Assembly (NCBI RefSeq): GCF_036507355.1
Contig: NZ_AP027877.1
Direction: 5' to 3' (one strand)
DNA length: 64,000 nucleotides
Source: Escherichia coli
GTDB taxonomy: Bacteria > Pseudomonadota > Gammaproteobacteria > Enterobacterales > Enterobacteriaceae
How positions within the stretch are numbered: the first letter of the stretch is position 1; the number at the start of each line of letters is the position of its first letter. Positions 25,644 to 37,837 of this stretch are shown here, one piece after another. The notes under the pieces are model-generated. The model was not told where the DNA came from. It ran no database searches and saw only the letters and a program-made list of their open reading frames with translations. The position numbers were made by a program, and so were the translations under genes.

Positions 25644-25730
25644 GCCCGGATGGTGGAATCGGTAGACACAAGGGATTTAAAATCCCTCGGCGTTCGCGCT
25701 GTGCGGGTTCAAGTCCCGCTCCGGGTACCA
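25644..25730 (+). tRNA. leuZ: tRNA-Leu (anticodon UAA), integration target of the island
   Basis: GCCCGGATGGTGGAATCGGTAGACACAAGGGATTTAAAATCCCTCGGCG...CCGGGTACCA, long variable arm. Confidence 0.95.
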
Positions 25731-30546: not shown

Positions 30547-30822
30547 GTGGCTTCCATTTCCATCAGATGTCCTTCCTGCTACGCTACTGAAGGCGTGGTG
30601 CGTAACGGCAAAAGCACTGCCGGACATCAGCGCTATCTCTGCTCTCATTACCGTAAAACATGGCAACTACAGTTCACTTACACCGCCTCTCAGCCCGGTA
30701 CGCACCAGAAAATCATTGATATGGCCATGAATGGCGTCGGATGTCGCGCCAGTGCACGCATTATGGGCGTTGGCCTCAACACGGTTTTACGTCACTTAAA
30801 AAACTCAGGCCGCAGTCGGTAA
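30547..30822 (+). CDS. insA: IS1 InsA
   Basis: [40 protein letters not shown]... Confidence 0.92.
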
Positions 30823-30848
30823 CCTAGCGCATACAACCGGGCGGTGAT

Positions 30849-31244
30849 GTGATTGTCTGCGCTGAAATGGACGAACAGCGGGGTTACGTCGGCGCTAAAT
30901 CACGCCAGCGCTGGTTGTTTTACGCGTATGACAGGATTCGGAGGACGGTTGTGGCGCACGTATTCGGTGAACGCACTCTGGCCACACTGGAGCGTCTTCT
31001 GAGCCTGCTGTCGGCCTTTGAGGTCGTGGTATGGATGACGGATGGCTGGCCGCTGTATGAATCCCGCCTGAAGGGAAAGCTGCACGTTATCAGCAAGCGT
31101 TACACTCAGCGCATTGAGCGACATAATCTGAATCTGAGACAACATCTGGCAAGGCTGGGACGGAAGTCACTGTCGTTCTCAAAATCGGTGGAGCTGCATG
31201 ACAAGGTCATCGGGCATTATCTGAACATAAAACACTATCAGTAA
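30849..31244 (+). CDS. insB: IS1 InsB (transposase part; InsAB' made by frameshift)
   Basis: ...[47 protein letters not shown]... Confidence 0.9.
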
Positions 31245-31435
31245 GTTGGAGTCATTACCTGTTTTTGCTGCATATTTGGCCATGCACTTTTGCCATCAAG
31301 TCAGAGAGACAGGGGCACCGTAAGAGACGAAGGTTGCTGCCTGTGATGAGAGGTTATCAGCAATTACAATGGTCACTAATATTTACATAATGTCGGAGAA
31401 CATCATTTTAGTTGAAATAATATAAAGGCGGTTCT

Positions 31436-31762
31436 ATGTATTTACATATCAGAAAGTATCAACTCGTAAATGCGAGATGGCGTGATATCATTGATTTGAC
31501 GGATTATGAAGAAACAATCAAGCAGGTTGTGAGTACATTATTTGGAAATGATTTTATTGAGGTCAGAGTTGAAACGCGTTGTTTTATTCTGACAGTAAAC
31601 AGTACAAGCAGTAAAATACCACACGGCATACTGGTGAATATGGGGAAAAGGCTGGCGGCGAATCTCCAGAGTATCACCTGTCATGCCATGCGGATCTATC
31701 ATGTAAATGGCCATCCTGACGCGCGGCAGTTATTTCACTGTTTTGATGCCGATTGCCTGTGA
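31436..31762 (+). CDS. Hypothetical protein (108 aa)
   Basis: ORF between IS1 and the convergent polymerase gene; no family recognised. Confidence 0.4.
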   Translation: MYLHIRKYQLVNARWRDIIDLTDYEETIKQVVSTLFGNDFIEVRVETRCFILTVNSTSSKIPHGILVNMGKRLAANLQSITCHAMRIYHVNGHPDARQLFHCFDADCL

Positions 31763-31810
31763 TTAAGCCCCCAACTTCTGTTAAAGGAGTTGGGGGAGAT
31801 TTAACGGTTA

Positions 31811-34474
31811 TCAGACTGGAAGACAGAATGTCGGATATTTACGGGCTATGATATCCATCAGTGACTTCATTCGCGGTGTTACAGAACTAAATTTCATTTG
31901 GGGTATTTTTGCTCTTACCGCATTTTTTACATCAGTCACCGTTACTGAATAGCCTTCTGACGTCAGCCATTCAGCAACCTCTTTACAGGAATAACTTTTT
32001 TTATCTTTCAGCATCAGCCCCCATTGGCACTGAGTCAGCGCCCGGAGAAATAGTCTGACTAAAATATCATCACTACGTTTGCTTCCGACTTTTAGTTTCA
32101 TATCAGAAAACACCGTCCGGCAATAGAGAAAATCACACCAGTCATCCCAGTCAGCCAGGGTCTTCAGTGTATGCGTTTGCCGCCAGTCGTCGAAAAGGGA
32201 GCGTTGCTGCAGAGCCTCTTCCATATTATCCCACGGGCGGGAAAACATCAGTAGATGCCCTTCATTCATGGCGGGCCGTACGGGCTGGCGTTTGAAATCG
32301 AATTCCAGATTAAGACGGATATCCTGTTCCCGGGATACCAGATCGCTTTCCGAGAGCCACATCTCACGCGTTGATATCAACGTACTTCGGGATAACGTCT
32401 GACCGGGTAAACGATTAAGGTAAAGATCTACCATATAGTCGTTATAGTCACTGCGTGGAATATCGGCAGGAGGTTTGACGCCAGCCCTGGCATGAACAAC
32501 AGGTTTTCCCTGAATCGCTTTATAGGTTAACTGCCCCCGGGTTTTCATGGCGATAAGCTGGCTGACCTCATGCTTACATGTCAACATTGATGAACCCGGA
32601 TCAACAATATCGCACAGCGACTGGAAGCGGGAAGACAGTGGACCGCTCATGTTTATCTTGTCAAGTGGGCAATTTGTCAAAAAACCATCGGTTGTGACGC
32701 TGACAACCGATGAATCAGAAGGCAAAGCATTCATGAGTTCCCCGACAACGGCGCGGATAAATCCCGTCACATGCGCAGCAAAGAATGGCTGAGTAACCGA
32801 TGATGGTGGGAGGGATCTGTTTAATCCACGGGCAGTATCAAAGGCGGTTTTGGCGCGAAGGCCCTGAGCAAGTTTGCCATAAAGCGAGTTGCCAATTTCT
32901 TTCCAGAATTTCTCCTCCAAAGAACCCTTAATATGGCGATTACGGTTCTCACGGACCTGTTGAACAAAGGGAAGAAACACCGATGTTGATTCGCTGTTAT
33001 GTGGGGAGGTGTCACAGATCCAGGGGACGATGATCCCATTATGGATCGTCATCTCTGCCCCGAGCGACAGAGCAAGTTCGATTTCAGGTGCCGTTGCCCA
33101 TGATTCGCCACTTAATGGAAAGAATAACCCATATTGATCGGTCCGAACCGGCAGGCTGGGATAGGGAACTGATTCCGGGAACCGAAATGTGACAAGCGCA
33201 AATCCCATCACATGCCCACAGTAATCGTCCGGATTTTTACTGAGGCGGATGTTTCCGTAATCGGGTATGAGGATATCTAATAGCCCGGTGGTATACGCTC
33301 CAGCCAGATCGTAGTCATACCAGTGATCAGACGGTGTAACCCCCATCATAAAACACTCATTGCGTCCGCCGTGGTAACAGTTGATCGGGAACGTTTCAAA
33401 CAACTCTCTTGAAGGAACACTGGCGGGGTTTTTAATCGTCCGGAATGCCTGTTTCTCCGTGAGCCAGAGTTCACGGGTTTTAATGTGTGTCCCAAGGCAG
33501 ACTTCAGGAGACATATTGTTTTCTTTAAGTGTTTTGGTGAACCGTGAAACTGCCATCGCCCCGATGGTGGCGGGGACACGATCAATCATCAGCTCCCGGG
33601 CGCAAAAATTGCGAACCTGTAAAGCATAACGAACCGCAATCTCGGCATCCCGCAGAGCATAGGCTTCAAACCCTGCTCTGTCGCCCAGAAGATATTCACG
33701 CATATTGGTTATGGAATAAGGTGCAGGAATGGTGAGTTTGGGAAGACCCAGTAATTCACCACATTCAGCCAGACCCATACCCCCGGGAGTGATAAGCAGT
33801 GTATCGATGAAAGCTACGTTACTGCAACGCGGAGGGGAAGTTCGTTTGTCAAACATTATCTGTTCAGTCTTTACGCGACGTTCCTGCTGTTCATCAAAAT
33901 CGATACCGTAACGATTTTTGAAGCTGCTGACAGTACCGCGTATTCCTTTCAGAAGAATTTTGTAGTCTGACCAGAAATTGGCAAAGGAGGCGATATCCGC
34001 ACGAATGAAATGCGCATATATATTAATAATACCGGGCCATTTTGTAATCACACCCGTTTCAAGAAGCGGTGTAATCGTTTGACAGAGAAATTCCTTAAAA
34101 GACAGTCGGGATTTTTTCTGTGAGTCAGGTGGATAGATAATGTTCGATATACCAGTGTTATCGGGTAAGACGACATAACTCTGATATGACAGAATATCAT
34201 TCTGTTGTGTTTCAGGATTGAAAACATATTCGGTATCAAAACCGATATGGAGTGTCAGGTCACTTGAAATAACAGATACTTTTTTTGATGCAGGTGGTAT
34301 CACAGGATAATCATCAAGCGTTTTAGGTCTTTTAAGATTGAGCGCTGGCTCTGAAGTCACGGACTGATACCCCGAGGCGGCAGCGAGGATATCCTGCAAA
34401 TTATGGCTCATAGTTAACTCCGAAAAAATGCCGGGAGCTGTGTCCCGGCATAAAGAATCAAGATTTAATAACAT
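31811..34474 (-). CDS. Family-B DNA polymerase of the primer-independent PolB (piPolB) type
   Basis: Exo I FDTEY, motif B KEIGNSLYG (KxxxNSxYG), motif C-like VTTDG, and KTRG in AMKTRGQLTY in place of the KxY motif; 887 aa. Confidence 0.85.
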   Translation of the reverse strand: MLLNLDSLCRDTAPGIFSELTMSHNLQDILAAASGYQSVTSEPALNLKRPKTLDDYPVIPPASKKVSVISSDLTLHIGFDTEYVFNPETQQNDILSYQSYVVLPDNTGISNIIYPPDSQKKSRLSFKEFLCQTITPLLETGVITKWPGIINIYAHFIRADIASFANFWSDYKILLKGIRGTVSSFKNRYGIDFDEQQERRVKTEQIMFDKRTSPPRCSNVAFIDTLLITPGGMGLAECGELLGLPKLTIPAPYSITNMREYLLGDRAGFEAYALRDAEIAVRYALQVRNFCARELMIDRVPATIGAMAVSRFTKTLKENNMSPEVCLGTHIKTRELWLTEKQAFRTIKNPASVPSRELFETFPINCYHGGRNECFMMGVTPSDHWYDYDLAGAYTTGLLDILIPDYGNIRLSKNPDDYCGHVMGFALVTFRFPESVPYPSLPVRTDQYGLFFPLSGESWATAPEIELALSLGAEMTIHNGIIVPWICDTSPHNSESTSVFLPFVQQVRENRNRHIKGSLEEKFWKEIGNSLYGKLAQGLRAKTAFDTARGLNRSLPPSSVTQPFFAAHVTGFIRAVVGELMNALPSDSSVVSVTTDGFLTNCPLDKINMSGPLSSRFQSLCDIVDPGSSMLTCKHEVSQLIAMKTRGQLTYKAIQGKPVVHARAGVKPPADIPRSDYNDYMVDLYLNRLPGQTLSRSTLISTREMWLSESDLVSREQDIRLNLEFDFKRQPVRPAMNEGHLLMFSRPWDNMEEALQQRSLFDDWRQTHTLKTLADWDDWCDFLYCRTVFSDMKLKVGSKRSDDILVRLFLRALTQCQWGLMLKDKKSYSCKEVAEWLTSEGYSVTVTDVKNAVRAKIPQMKFSSVTPRMKSLMDIIARKYPTFCLPV

Positions 34475-35096
34475 TTACTACAGATTTGAAAATATCGGTT
34501 TTGCGTGATTCATCATCTACATGGATAAAGGAAACGAGTTTCCTGCCTGCTTTAATCAGGATACCGCGTTGCGTCTTTTCCACAGACGGGGTAACGTGTG
34601 CAGATAACAGACAATGTTCATGTAAATGAAGAAACTTTTTTGAGGCGTAGCCGCCATGTAATCGGGCTTGAATGTCAAGATACATATCATCAAGAGAACC
34701 GGGTTCTCCTGATTCACTCAATACCGGATAACCCTTCTTATCAAAGAGGTTAAGGATAGATTTACTATCATGTTCGAACAGGGTAACACCGTAAATGTAT
34801 TTCATTCGAAAGGTGAGGGAATCGGTGGTGTAGACCTCCTCCTGACGATTGAAATTTTTGAGACGCCTGGCTAATTCATTAAAAACAGCACGAGCAGTAG
34901 CCGTGTCCTGCAGGGTGTAGGTATAAAGTACGAAGCCATCTGTGCCGATGAGCTTTACTAAGTTGTCCATAATCGTGATAGCGAGAACTAATGCAAAGGA
35001 TAGATATTTTTCATCGTTGTCTACAGCTGTGTTTGCTGCTTCAGGAAGAATGTTCAGTGCATTATTAGCATTATTTGCTGTGTTCTTAGTAACCAT
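34458..35096 (-). CDS. Hypothetical protein (212 aa) co-transcribed upstream of the polymerase
   Basis: Overlaps the polymerase start by 17 nt and the AlpA-like gene stop by 11 nt. Confidence 0.55.
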   Translation of the reverse strand: MVTKNTANNANNALNILPEAANTAVDNDEKYLSFALVLAITIMDNLVKLIGTDGFVLYTYTLQDTATARAVFNELARRLKNFNRQEEVYTTDSLTFRMKYIYGVTLFEHDSKSILNLFDKKGYPVLSESGEPGSLDDMYLDIQARLHGGYASKKFLHLHEHCLLSAHVTPSVEKTQRGILIKAGRKLVSFIHVDDESRKTDIFKSVVNVIKS

Positions 35097-35286
35097 TTAT
35101 ATCACCTTTAAGTTTGTTTTGACGATGTGCATTTTCCCACTCAACAATATCATCAAGAGAGAATCGTATAGCCCGCCCAATTCTGATGAAGGGCGGGAGT
35201 TTTCCGGGGTTGCGCGATATATCTGACGCAACCGTGGATGCAGAAAGATTAAATCTTTCTGCGAACTGCTTAATGGTTAAATACAT
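35086..35286 (-). CDS. AlpA-family phage-type regulator / excisionase-like HTH protein
   Basis: 66 aa, MYLTIKQFAERFNLSASTVASDISRNPGKLPPFIRIGRAIRFSLDDIVEW, typical AlpA/Xis HTH_17. Confidence 0.75.
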   Translation of the reverse strand: MYLTIKQFAERFNLSASTVASDISRNPGKLPPFIRIGRAIRFSLDDIVEWENAHRQNKLKGDINGY

Positions 35287-35436
35287 AAACCTCCGGTTTC
35301 AGAGAATAAGAAGCCACGCGGATTTAATATCAATCCACATTCTGTGATGACTTAATGCAGGGCCCTGCAGAAGCATGCAATGACAATACCGTCCTTAAAC
35401 GAGTGTTGCATCAATCACGAATCACAGATCATAGGT

Positions 35437-36564
35437 TCATTTTGTGTCATAACTTTCTATGACCTGAGAAACCACTGCGTGTGATGTCGCTGCATTGTGA
35501 AAAGCGTAGCGACGGGTCGCCGTGAGTGAATGGTGATTTAGCAGATGGGAAGCGATTGCAATATCCCCGGTCGCCTGTAGTACCCGGGTGGCAAAGGTAC
35601 GGCGCAGGTCATGCATCCGCAGGTTATCAATGTTGGCATCCCGACAAATACGGGCAAAGGTTGCACGCGGATATGCCAGAGGGCGGGCATTGTCGGTTAG
35701 TTGTGGAAAAATGTAAGTTTTGCTGAGCATCAGGTCCTGCTGGCACTGGACAACTGCAATGGCTGGAAGTGCAAGTGGGCAGGTGAAAGGGTGTCCGGAC
35801 TTTGTATCAGGCAGTATGAGTTGATGCATATCCGGGTGCCAGTACTCCCATTTCAGGGTACATACCTCACCAATACGCATCCCCGTATAAAGAGCAAGCA
35901 ATATAGAATCAGCTGCCGGTGTTTGCAGCGCTGTTGCTGCGTTAATAAAGCGCGGGATTTCTGTCGCTGACAGTGTGCGATAGCGAATGTTATTTTCTTT
36001 CAGATAGCGGACATGTGACATCGGGGAATGTGTGATCCATCCAGCACGTACTGCCAGAGAGCATATTTTGGACAATATTGCGAGGATACGGTTTACTGTT
36101 GACGGACGTAATTTTTCCCGTAAGCCAGCAGCATATTGTTCTAGTTCTCCTGCCGTGATGTCGCGAAGTTGCCGCTTGCCCCAGAACGGGCGAACGTAGA
36201 GGTTGAGTTTTGACAACTCTGACTGAGGACTCTTTTTATACAACTGCAAATCCGGTAGCCACAGGTCATTGATGGCCTGTTCCACAGTGAATCGACGGGA
36301 CTGAACAGCAAGGCGATTTTTATCGGCAAGCAGGTTCATCACATGCTGACGGGCATCCTCAATGCAGAGATGAGGGAATTCACCCAGTGTTTCATATATA
36401 CGTTGATTTTTGATGGTGGCGCGAAAGGCCAGCGTGATCCGTTTTGGATATACCAGTGCACGCAGGTTTTGGCACTGAATATCACGGTATTCCTGACAAC
36501 CCGTGAGGGGATGTGGAAGTTGGTGAATTGATTTGTTGCTGAAACGCAGATCCAGAATAGGCAT
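35437..36564 (-). CDS. Second tyrosine recombinase / integrase
   Basis: Catalytic HDLRRTFATRV (HxxR) and TRRYAF (Tyr), plus core-binding-like N-terminal region. Confidence 0.85.
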   Translation of the reverse strand: MPILDLRFSNKSIHQLPHPLTGCQEYRDIQCQNLRALVYPKRITLAFRATIKNQRIYETLGEFPHLCIEDARQHVMNLLADKNRLAVQSRRFTVEQAINDLWLPDLQLYKKSPQSELSKLNLYVRPFWGKRQLRDITAGELEQYAAGLREKLRPSTVNRILAILSKICSLAVRAGWITHSPMSHVRYLKENNIRYRTLSATEIPRFINAATALQTPAADSILLALYTGMRIGEVCTLKWEYWHPDMHQLILPDTKSGHPFTCPLALPAIAVVQCQQDLMLSKTYIFPQLTDNARPLAYPRATFARICRDANIDNLRMHDLRRTFATRVLQATGDIAIASHLLNHHSLTATRRYAFHNAATSHAVVSQVIESYDTK

Positions 36565-36706
36565 CGTATTTCTCCTGTAAATGACACTGGAAAAATACGA
36601 TGTGAGGTTATAGTCTGCCAGTTACAGCTTTCACAGTTCATCAGGTGAAAAATGCTGATTCGGATATAATGGCAACACAATTCCATGTCGCCATTATATT
36701 AAGAAA

Positions 36707-37837
36707 CTACAGTTTCATGATCTTGTTCGCTATTTTTTCGAAGTAAACCTCATTCTTAAGAAGAGTGATATTGTTAGTTTGAACACCCAGACCACTGGAG
36801 GTTGACTGGAAGTTGAGTGAACCACTTATCACGGTGGACTTTCCTGATAAAAATGAAATCAACTCCTTGGAAGATGGTGCCCACTCAGGGTTTAAGAGTA
36901 ATGCAATGTAGATATATGTCTTACGAAGCAATTGTTCGATATCTTTTTTATACCCCGTAGTGTTTTGCTTACCTTTAATGCAAATTGATTTGATTATGAA
37001 CTCATCAGGGCTGGTTAAAGGCGTTTTAAACTTATTCAGTGATCCATCGTTATGAATGACTTCATAAGGCAGCATAGATAAAATGATCAATGCAATCATT
37101 TTAGGATGATAAAGGTAGTTATCACGAATGATTTTTCCTGCCTTCATTGTATTGAGTGTTGTTTGAATAAATACAAAAAGATATTCAGAGCAAAAGTAAC
37201 AAAACACAAGCCAGGATAGGTCAATGGCTGGAATGTTAATATCCTTAGGTAGTTTGTTTAGCCAGTATTCAGACTTCAAAAAGGTCCTGATTTCAACAGT
37301 ATATTCATGCATTTTTGCGCTGAAATCAAGCATTGCTACTTGACCTGATTGTTCCGTAACTGTGTGGTCTATAAATGTTAGTGTATTGCACATTTTATCC
37401 AGCGTGTTTTGAAAACAAGAAAGGAGTTCGGCATTATTATTACCATTAACCGCAGATGAAAGTTCAGTTGCAATAAATGCATCCAGTAGCATACAGATTT
37501 TTTTCGGAATGACATTTTTACGGGATTGCTGTGAATAGAAATATACTGCCAGTAAATTAAAGGCAGTGCACTCCTTTTTTAACCATTGTTCGAGCACTGG
37601 GACGTGCTGAAAAAAATTGATATGCTTAGCAGTAGATGCTGATGGAGATAGTACATGAAGAATATCTACAGCAGGCTTCATTTGCAATATTTGATCGGAT
37701 TCGGTAGTCGTCATTAGTTCCAGTAATTGCTGTTCAGAAAATAGTTTAGACAGGTGATCAATGTCTTTTTGGTATTGGTTAAGTTTTTTTAAATTCCCCG
37801 GTACACGGGTTACATTGTTTTTCATTTTCTCGAACAT
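36707..37837 (-). CDS. Hypothetical protein (376 aa), AT-rich orphan
   Basis: Long ORF in visibly AT-rich DNA; no motif recognised. Confidence 0.55.
   Translation of the reverse strand: MFEKMKNNVTRVPGNLKKLNQYQKDIDHLSKLFSEQQLLELMTTTESDQILQMKPAVDILHVLSPSASTAKHINFFQHVPVLEQWLKKECTAFNLLAVYFYSQQSRKNVIPKKICMLLDAFIATELSSAVNGNNNAELLSCFQNTLDKMCNTLTFIDHTVTEQSGQVAMLDFSAKMHEYTVEIRTFLKSEYWLNKLPKDINIPAIDLSWLVFCYFCSEYLFVFIQTTLNTMKAGKIIRDNYLYHPKMIALIILSMLPYEVIHNDGSLNKFKTPLTSPDEFIIKSICIKGKQNTTGYKKDIEQLLRKTYIYIALLLNPEWAPSSKELISFLSGKSTVISGSLNFQSTSSGLGVQTNNITLLKNEVYFEKIANKIMKL

Follow-up and report, generated by a model that had tools for sequence, protein, structure and literature searches.

A conserved gene block and a structured spacer upstream of the primer-independent DNA polymerase of enterobacterial pipolins

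The stretch analysed here (hereafter the window) comprises 64,000 nucleotides of contig NZ_AP027877.1 from an Escherichia coli genome (RefSeq assembly GCF_036507355.1) and carries the core of a pipolin, an element built around a primer-independent family B DNA polymerase (piPolB). Four genes of the core lie in a row on the minus strand and are conserved as one block. The first encodes an IntP2-type tyrosine recombinase of 375 amino acids (aa) (35437-36564), which matches the PHROG 1 integrase family (E 9e-50) and Xer-like NCBIfam models and is a 'tyrosine-type recombinase/integrase' in RefSeq. It is followed by a 66-aa excisionase-like helix-turn-helix (HTH) protein (35086-35286), a 212-aa orphan protein (34458-35096; WP_053266086.1) and piPolB itself (31811-34411; 866 aa, beginning MSHNL). 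The core order is thus IntP2-type tyrosine recombinase, HTH_17 excisionase-like protein, lineage-specific 212-aa protein, structured spacer and piPolB. The initial annotation had given the same minus-strand order from the open reading frames (ORFs) at 36564-35437, 35286-35086 and 35096-34458 and a long polymerase ORF ending at 31811, and the Prokaryotic Genome Annotation Pipeline (PGAP) annotates the same genes.

The locus is the already described E. coli pipolin core, at a tRNA-Leu gene (25644-25730) (PMC5695915, PMC7385651, PMC11551731). The 866-aa polymerase is identical to the RefSeq 'DNA polymerase' and to the UniRef 'Primer-independent DNA polymerase PolB', and it matches PHROG DNA polymerase families. 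In the identical RefSeq region, tRNA-Leu is accompanied by a site-specific integrase, a DUF2787 gene and the IntP2-type recombinase, i.e., by the recombinases and tRNA-adjacent integration expected of a pipolin. Positions 31700-36700 are 100% identical to the chromosome of E. coli RM14721. Of 5,426 complete E. coli genomes, 300 carry this region at an identity of at least 95%, in each case on the chromosome. We found no DNA difference between the block in the window and the enterobacterial pipolin core (Redrejo-Rodriguez 2017, PMC5695915; Flament-Simon 2020, PMC7385651; Mateo-Caceres 2024, PMC11551731). Those papers count 'orphan proteins' among the core genes. The 212-aa protein is covered in them only under that term, and they mention neither its fixed slot nor its fold nor the hairpin described below.

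The HTH gene and the 212-aa gene overlap by 11 nucleotides (nt) (35086-35096, ATGGTTACTAA), as the initial annotation had it and as PGAP agrees. The stop of the HTH gene lies at 35086 and the ATG of the 212-aa gene at 35096, so that stop and start overlap. The start of the 212-aa gene is unambiguous because it is preceded by an AAGGTGA Shine-Dalgarno sequence and because its ORF opens directly after an in-frame TAA.

A second overlap had been reported, of 17 nt between the 212-aa ORF and piPolB, and the two overlaps together had been taken to imply translational coupling to the polymerase. This second overlap is an artefact of placing the polymerase start at the first ATG (34474) of the longest ORF; the true start is at 34411. 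The ATG at 34474 has no Shine-Dalgarno sequence, and the ATG at 34411, which is also the PGAP start, has GGAG 6 nt upstream. The resulting length of 866 aa is found in 118 of the 120 best public piPolB gene calls. Residues D368, K613 and H614, mutated to alanine in published piPolB variants (D368A, K613A, H614A; PMC5695915), are invariant columns in the 866-aa numbering, matching the published residue numbers. In the pipolin locus L002, one of a set of related loci (L-numbers below) used for comparison, the codon at the position of 34474 is ACG, and no in-frame upstream start crossing the stop of the 212-aa gene was found in L005, L007, L008, L012 or L013. The 21-codon N-terminal extension of the longest ORF (34474-34412) is not real, and the 46 nt between the 212-aa stop and the piPolB start (34412-34457), through which it runs, are non-coding. 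This gap measures 45-63 nt in other lineages, and in no lineage examined does the 212-aa gene overlap the polymerase gene or their stop and start coincide. The data do not support translational coupling with the polymerase: the genes do not overlap, and in every lineage a stable hairpin occupies the spacer of 45-63 nt between them.

The spacer hairpin in the window lies at 34428-34451 on the minus strand and reads AUGCCGGGA-CACAGC-UCCCGGCAU. It has a 9-bp stem with six G-C pairs and a 6-nt loop, and a terminator scan shows it followed by TTTTTT (U6), so that in the window it has the GC-rich stem-loop and U-run of an intrinsic (Rho-independent) terminator. An 81-nt segment around the spacer folds at -20.5 kcal/mol (z -2.8), and an outer stem pairs the region of the 212-aa stop (UGAUUCU) with that of the piPolB Shine-Dalgarno sequence (GGAGUUA). 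The window and L002 share 93% identity in the spacer, while synonymous sites of the flanking genes differ at 42-50%. A GC-rich hairpin of 7-9 bp is present in all five lineages retrieved (approximate coordinates: L002, 8655-8676; L005, 8650-8670; L007, 8617-8636; L008, 2367-2386; L012-L014, about 7584-7608), with fold z-scores of -1.8 to -4.0 in eight loci. Five distinct stems occur: GCCGGGA/UCCCGGC, GCCGGGAG/CUCCCGGC, GCGGGAGAG/CUCUCCCGC, CGGUGCCA/UGGCACCG and GCGGUGUC/GACACCGC. The pairs were tabulated by hand, as MAFFT misaligned the hairpins of the two stem types, and all base pairs are standard in all five. Because different stems are all fully complementary, it is the structure of the spacer, not its sequence, that is selected. 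No Rfam family was found within 31000-37500.

The U-run that follows the hairpin occurs only in the clade of E. coli, Citrobacter and L002 and is absent in L005, L007, L008 and L012-L014. Canonical termination therefore cannot be the common function of the hairpin, and from the comparison of these spacers its shared function is probably a different one. Compared with intrinsic terminators and intercistronic stabilising hairpins, the window has the familiar arrangement of a GC-rich 9-bp stem, a 6-nt loop and U6 between two cistrons; the difference from intrinsic terminators is that other pipolin lineages keep the hairpin without a U-run. The hairpin may act by partial termination or attenuation, by protecting the 3' end of the upstream message, or by occluding the ribosome-binding site of the polymerase. 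Attenuation, 3'-end protection and control of ribosome access each predict less polymerase than upstream products, the opposite of the stoichiometric co-expression that the initial annotation had proposed. That proposal is not supported: a terminator-like hairpin placed just ahead of the Shine-Dalgarno sequence of piPolB speaks for expression at unequal levels.

The 66-aa protein encoded upstream had been called AlpA-like. It is indeed an HTH protein, and some RefSeq records name it 'AlpA family transcriptional regulator', but the label is loose, as the protein matches HTH_17 and excisionase models and has no match to Phage_AlpA. At E <= 10 its listed Pfam matches are HTH_17 (E 1e-8) and six weak HTH families, with Phage_AlpA not among them. 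It matches PHROG 66 ('excisionase and transcriptional regulator', E 4e-7) and the TIGR01764 excisionase domain (E 3.5e-5, at 24.1 bits, under the cut-off of 28.8). A sequence search of the PDB found no AlpA chain and only a marginal match to the recombination directionality factor RdfS. The protein is basic (isoelectric point, pI, 9.7) and highly constrained, with a ratio of nonsynonymous to synonymous substitution rates (dN/dS) of 0-0.05. Its gene starts 150 nt downstream of the tyrosine recombinase gene, and by position and domain it would fit an excisionase-type HTH_17 directionality factor or a regulator. It also matches the PADLOC model mad1, the HTH component of a methylation-associated defence system (E 8e-9), a match that probably reflects only the shared HTH_17 fold.

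The terminator-like hairpin directly upstream of piPolB raises the question of whether the HTH protein loads on RNA polymerase to bypass it, so that piPolB would be made only upon induction. In Pseudomonas aeruginosa, AlpA works as an antiterminator, enabling RNA polymerase to pass intrinsic terminators (PMC7969949, PMC9371919), and AlpA switches on excision and replication in Gram-negative phage-inducible chromosomal islands (PICIs) (PMC6092414). Such an antitermination gate is conceivable, but it is unsupported by sequence and we consider it highly improbable: the HTH protein has the marginal RdfS match in place of any to AlpA, the U-run is missing in other lineages, and no AlpA-binding element was identified.

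The layout of Gram-negative PICIs (int, alpA and a replication module, with AlpA as the switch; Fillol-Salom 2018, PMC6092414) is nonetheless similar to that of the pipolin core: in both, an integrase gene precedes a small HTH regulator gene on the same strand, and the replicase of the element comes next. The pipolin differs in having a primer-independent PolB as replicase, not Pri-Rep, and an HTH_17/excisionase-like regulator without a Phage_AlpA match. Pipolins also have no known helper phage or packaging genes, and we found no PICI counterpart for the 212-aa gene.

The 212-aa protein was initially annotated as having no recognisable motif, and we agree: searches of Pfam, NCBIfam, PHROG and PADLOC found no family for it, and a PDB sequence search gave no match. 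Pfam likewise had no match for any of 10 family members; one relative (P0135) matches phrog_16751, of unknown function (E 6e-4). A word-indexed search of 5.8 billion clusters returned relatives only of the E. coli type. An exhaustive profile search of 1.84 billion representative proteins gave 19 hits, the full-length ones of 219, 211 and 200 aa. Two of the 19 are repeat-protein artefacts and the rest are enterobacterial-type proteins or fragments. A broader profile and a scan of species-representative genomes added relatives from Citrobacter, Enterobacter, Lelliottia, Leclercia, Hafnia, Klebsiella aerogenes, Buttiauxella and Intestinirhabdus. No relative from outside the Enterobacterales was found among the 1.84 billion representatives or in the second search with the broader profile.

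Conservation of the ORF next to piPolB in other pipolins, which the initial annotation had named as a check, holds within the Enterobacterales. All relatives found, including those of only 29% identity, have an HTH_17 gene on one side and piPolB on the other. The fixed slot (integrase, HTH_17 gene, orphan gene, gap of 45-63 nt, piPolB) was seen in L002, L005, L007 and L008 and in Citrobacter, Intestinirhabdus, Enterobacter and Buttiauxella. This comparison covers enterobacterial pipolins; a scan of IMG/VR with a piPolB alignment, aimed at Vibrio or Aeromonas pipolins, returned a single E. coli-type contig. The dN/dS of the 212-aa gene is 0.20 against L002 (at a synonymous divergence, dS, of 0.82) and 0.32-0.35 against Citrobacter. 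These substitution patterns show that the ORF is a genuine gene on which purifying selection acts.

Frameshifted 179-aa versions of the protein (P0009, P0011, P0012) make up about 64 deposited sequences, and the C-terminal third is lost in some strains. These variants, together with the lack of any family or motif, could suggest a chance ORF or a decaying pseudogene. We regard this as refuted by the conservation pattern: dN/dS is 0.20-0.35 at dS of up to 0.82, full-length relatives of 29-71% identity occupy the same position in at least nine genera, and the fold is predicted with confidence and reproduced in an independent model (see below).

Amino acid identity to the window was compared for the integrase, the HTH protein, the 212-aa protein and piPolB, in that order. 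It is 91, 95, 71 and 87% in L002, 64, 73, 35 and 60% in L005, and 78, 56, 30 and 71% in L007; the integrase thus spans 64-91% across divergent loci. By these figures the 212-aa protein is the fastest-evolving member of the block. One alternative is that it is a fast-evolving interaction module that senses or binds a host or phage protein, for example in connection with an induction signal, interference or anti-defence, and is neither a DNA-binding nor a replication factor. Against this, the protein matches no PADLOC or PHROG family and has no known partner, and its position is fixed inside the recombinase and polymerase core, not in the exchangeable cargo module. We think this alternative doubtful.

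Against the Citrobacter loci L009-L011, dS is 0.12-0.16 in the HTH and orphan genes and 0.04-0.075 in the integrase and piPolB genes, a difference of 2-3 fold. These values suggest that the segment made up of the HTH and orphan genes has a recombination history unlike that of its neighbours.

An AlphaFold2 model of the 212-aa protein, made from a 10-sequence alignment, has a mean predicted local distance difference test score (pLDDT) of 86 and a predicted template modelling score (pTM) of 0.80. Residues 1-30 are disordered, and the folded part consists of three units, each of beta-strands and then a helix (beta-meander-plus-helix). The AlphaFold database (AFDB) model of an Enterobacter asburiae relative (28% identical) superposes at a template modelling (TM) score of 0.80-0.84, so the fold is reproducible. 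The three units look alike by eye, though hhalign comparisons among them are not significant (E 0.04-0.66), and we therefore claim no internal duplication. The model weakly resembles LytTR DNA-binding and PH-like folds. Foldseek ranks ComE, 3d6w and AgrA at the top of its PDB matches (E 1.5e-3 to 6e-2, TM 0.25-0.43), and its matches in AFDB50 are mostly LytTR proteins plus two uncharacterised Vibrio proteins. The latter, A0A2T5ERY3 of Vibrio splendidus (153 aa) and A0A151KS02 of Vibrio cidicii (156 aa), are the closest structural neighbours outside the family (E 1e-4 to 5e-3, TM 0.51-0.58 on the target) and, going by the models, could be counterparts in Vibrio pipolins.

The resemblance to the LytTR domain (AgrA 3bs1, ComE 4cbv, 3d6w) has clear limits. 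The 212-aa protein is about twice the size, has extra units, is acidic to neutral, gives low TM-scores and shares no sequence or profile similarity. Pfam LytTR matched neither the protein nor any of the 10 family members, and hhalign against an alignment of AgrA, ComE and 3d6w gave a probability of 0.56%. No direct repeats of the kind that serve as LytTR-type DNA sites were found in the two flanking intergenic regions. The description 'LytTR-like nucleic-acid binder', drawn from structural models, is thus a lead, not an assignment.

The initial annotation had suggested that the 212-aa protein could assist piPolB as an accessory factor in replication, co-expressed with it on one transcript; template or origin targeting, loading, or a terminal-protein-like role could be meant. 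In every lineage found, the gene directly precedes piPolB in the same orientation, at a distance of 45-63 nt. As there is no room for a promoter past the hairpin, transcription can get to piPolB only by reading through. Terminal-protein genes have the same position in protein-primed PolB replicons, just upstream of the polymerase gene, as in phi29 (gp3-gp2), PRD1 and Bam35. In both cases a small, poorly conserved gene immediately precedes that of a PolB, and the polymerases belong to related clades. The likeness ends there: in vitro, piPolB carries out both priming and replication of DNA with no further protein factor, and it needs no protein primer (PMC5695915), and there is no evidence of a priming residue in the 212-aa protein. 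Unlike protein-primed replicons with their terminal inverted repeats, the pipolin is presumably flanked by direct attachment (att) repeats at a tRNA.

Further points tell against an accessory factor. The genes do not overlap, and the terminator-like hairpin lies between them. In L007 the orphan protein is down to 30% identity where piPolB keeps 71%, and the family was not found outside the Enterobacterales among the 1.84 billion representative proteins, whereas piPolB occurs in many phyla (PMC11551731). The frameshifted 179-aa variants persist in deposited sequences. A sliding clamp or processivity factor was rejected, as DnaN chains were matched only at Foldseek probabilities of 0.01-0.08 and TM 0.09-0.15. 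A co-fold prediction in which a linker joined the orphan protein to piPolB (7 paired sequences) did not model the polymerase (mean pLDDT 41, pTM 0.27) and is uninformative on this point. Because its adjacency to piPolB is invariable, we keep the accessory factor as a possibility, albeit an unlikely one.

The reading that we prefer, with a probability of roughly one half, is that the block is a conserved enterobacterial pipolin core in which the HTH and 212-aa proteins are co-produced for the control or excision functions of the element, and the hairpin sets the output of the polymerase separately. The two proteins would be made together from one message, probably by coupled translation, and would act on the regulatory or excision side. 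The 212-aa protein may be a nucleic-acid-binding or partner-binding accessory, as its predicted beta-rich fold, with LytTR DNA-binding domains as nearest structural neighbours, suggests. The polymerase would be expressed by read-through of the structured spacer, at a lower and separately set level. As piPolB needs no further protein for its activity, a stoichiometric coupling to it is unsupported, and the 212-aa protein is presumably not a stoichiometric, obligatory subunit of piPolB.

Several observations weigh against the preferred reading. The junction between the HTH and orphan genes varies among lineages (-17, -11, +1 and +31 nt), and coupling by overlap is therefore not a family trait. 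The restriction of the U-run to one clade takes the terminator-like character from the hairpin in the other lineages. At pI 5.0-7.1 the 212-aa family is neutral to acidic, an uncommon property among DNA-binding proteins. That its gene always lies next to piPolB is just as compatible with a role related to the polymerase. Moreover, we infer both co-transcription and the effect of the hairpin from sequence.

A more far-reaching idea is that the 212-aa protein and the adjoining compensated hairpin form a cis/trans pair, in which a LytTR-like binder would recognise the structured site by the piPolB start and thereby gate synthesis or mark where copying of the excised element starts. We consider this improbable. 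If true, self-replicating elements would have in this pair an initiation or control module of a new kind.

The 150-nt intergenic region between the integrase and HTH genes (35287-35436, minus strand) is a candidate promoter or operator region and is 91% identical to that of L002; no sigma-70 consensus site was found in it. A perfect 14-nt palindrome, TGCAGGGCCCTGCA, lies at 35356-35369, some 70 nt before the HTH gene starts. This candidate operator is nearly kept in L002, where one T is inserted. Two inverted repeats lie around the integrase start. The first (36562-36602; 17 nt, 88% complementary, 7-nt spacer) has one arm spanning the integrase Shine-Dalgarno sequence and ATG and may control integrase translation. 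The second (36664-36699; 14 nt, 93% complementary, 8-nt spacer) closely follows the stop of a 376-aa gene on the upstream side of the integrase and may serve as a terminator or as an operator. The 376-aa hypothetical protein itself (36707-37837, minus strand), encoded upstream of the integrase, keeps its position across lineages and is fast-evolving (29-42% identity; L002, L005, L007, L012-L015). It has no PADLOC or PHROG match.

On one strand, the RefSeq/PGAP annotation has two hypothetical proteins, the tyrosine recombinase, the helix-turn-helix regulator, the 212-aa hypothetical protein (WP_053266086.1) and the 'DNA polymerase'. To one side of these genes it shows IS1, DUF2787, a second integrase and tRNA-Leu; the opposite flank holds a type I restriction-modification system. 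A RefSeq-annotated 108-aa ORF (31436-31762, plus strand) converges on the 3' end of piPolB; it is 84% identical in L002, 63% in L005 and 94% in Citrobacter, and is absent from the L007/L012 lineage. The IS1 copy (30547-31244, plus strand) has InsA and InsB ORFs, with a programmed frameshift in RefSeq; its insertion into the pipolin core separates the 108-aa ORF from the DUF2787 side.

As a product of a genome scan the finding is modest: the element is known, the claim of coupling to the polymerase was wrong, and the function proposed for the 212-aa protein is tentative. The gene model is corrected, in that the orphan gene and piPolB do not overlap and piPolB starts at 34411. What is new and useful is this correction, together with the fixed slot that an uncharacterised protein family occupies in all enterobacterial lineages examined and a structurally conserved hairpin kept by compensatory change. 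Pipolins are widespread defence islands, and the polymerase is their only characterised protein. The fixed-slot protein and the hairpin offer two concrete handles on the control of piPolB expression and of pipolin excision and replication.

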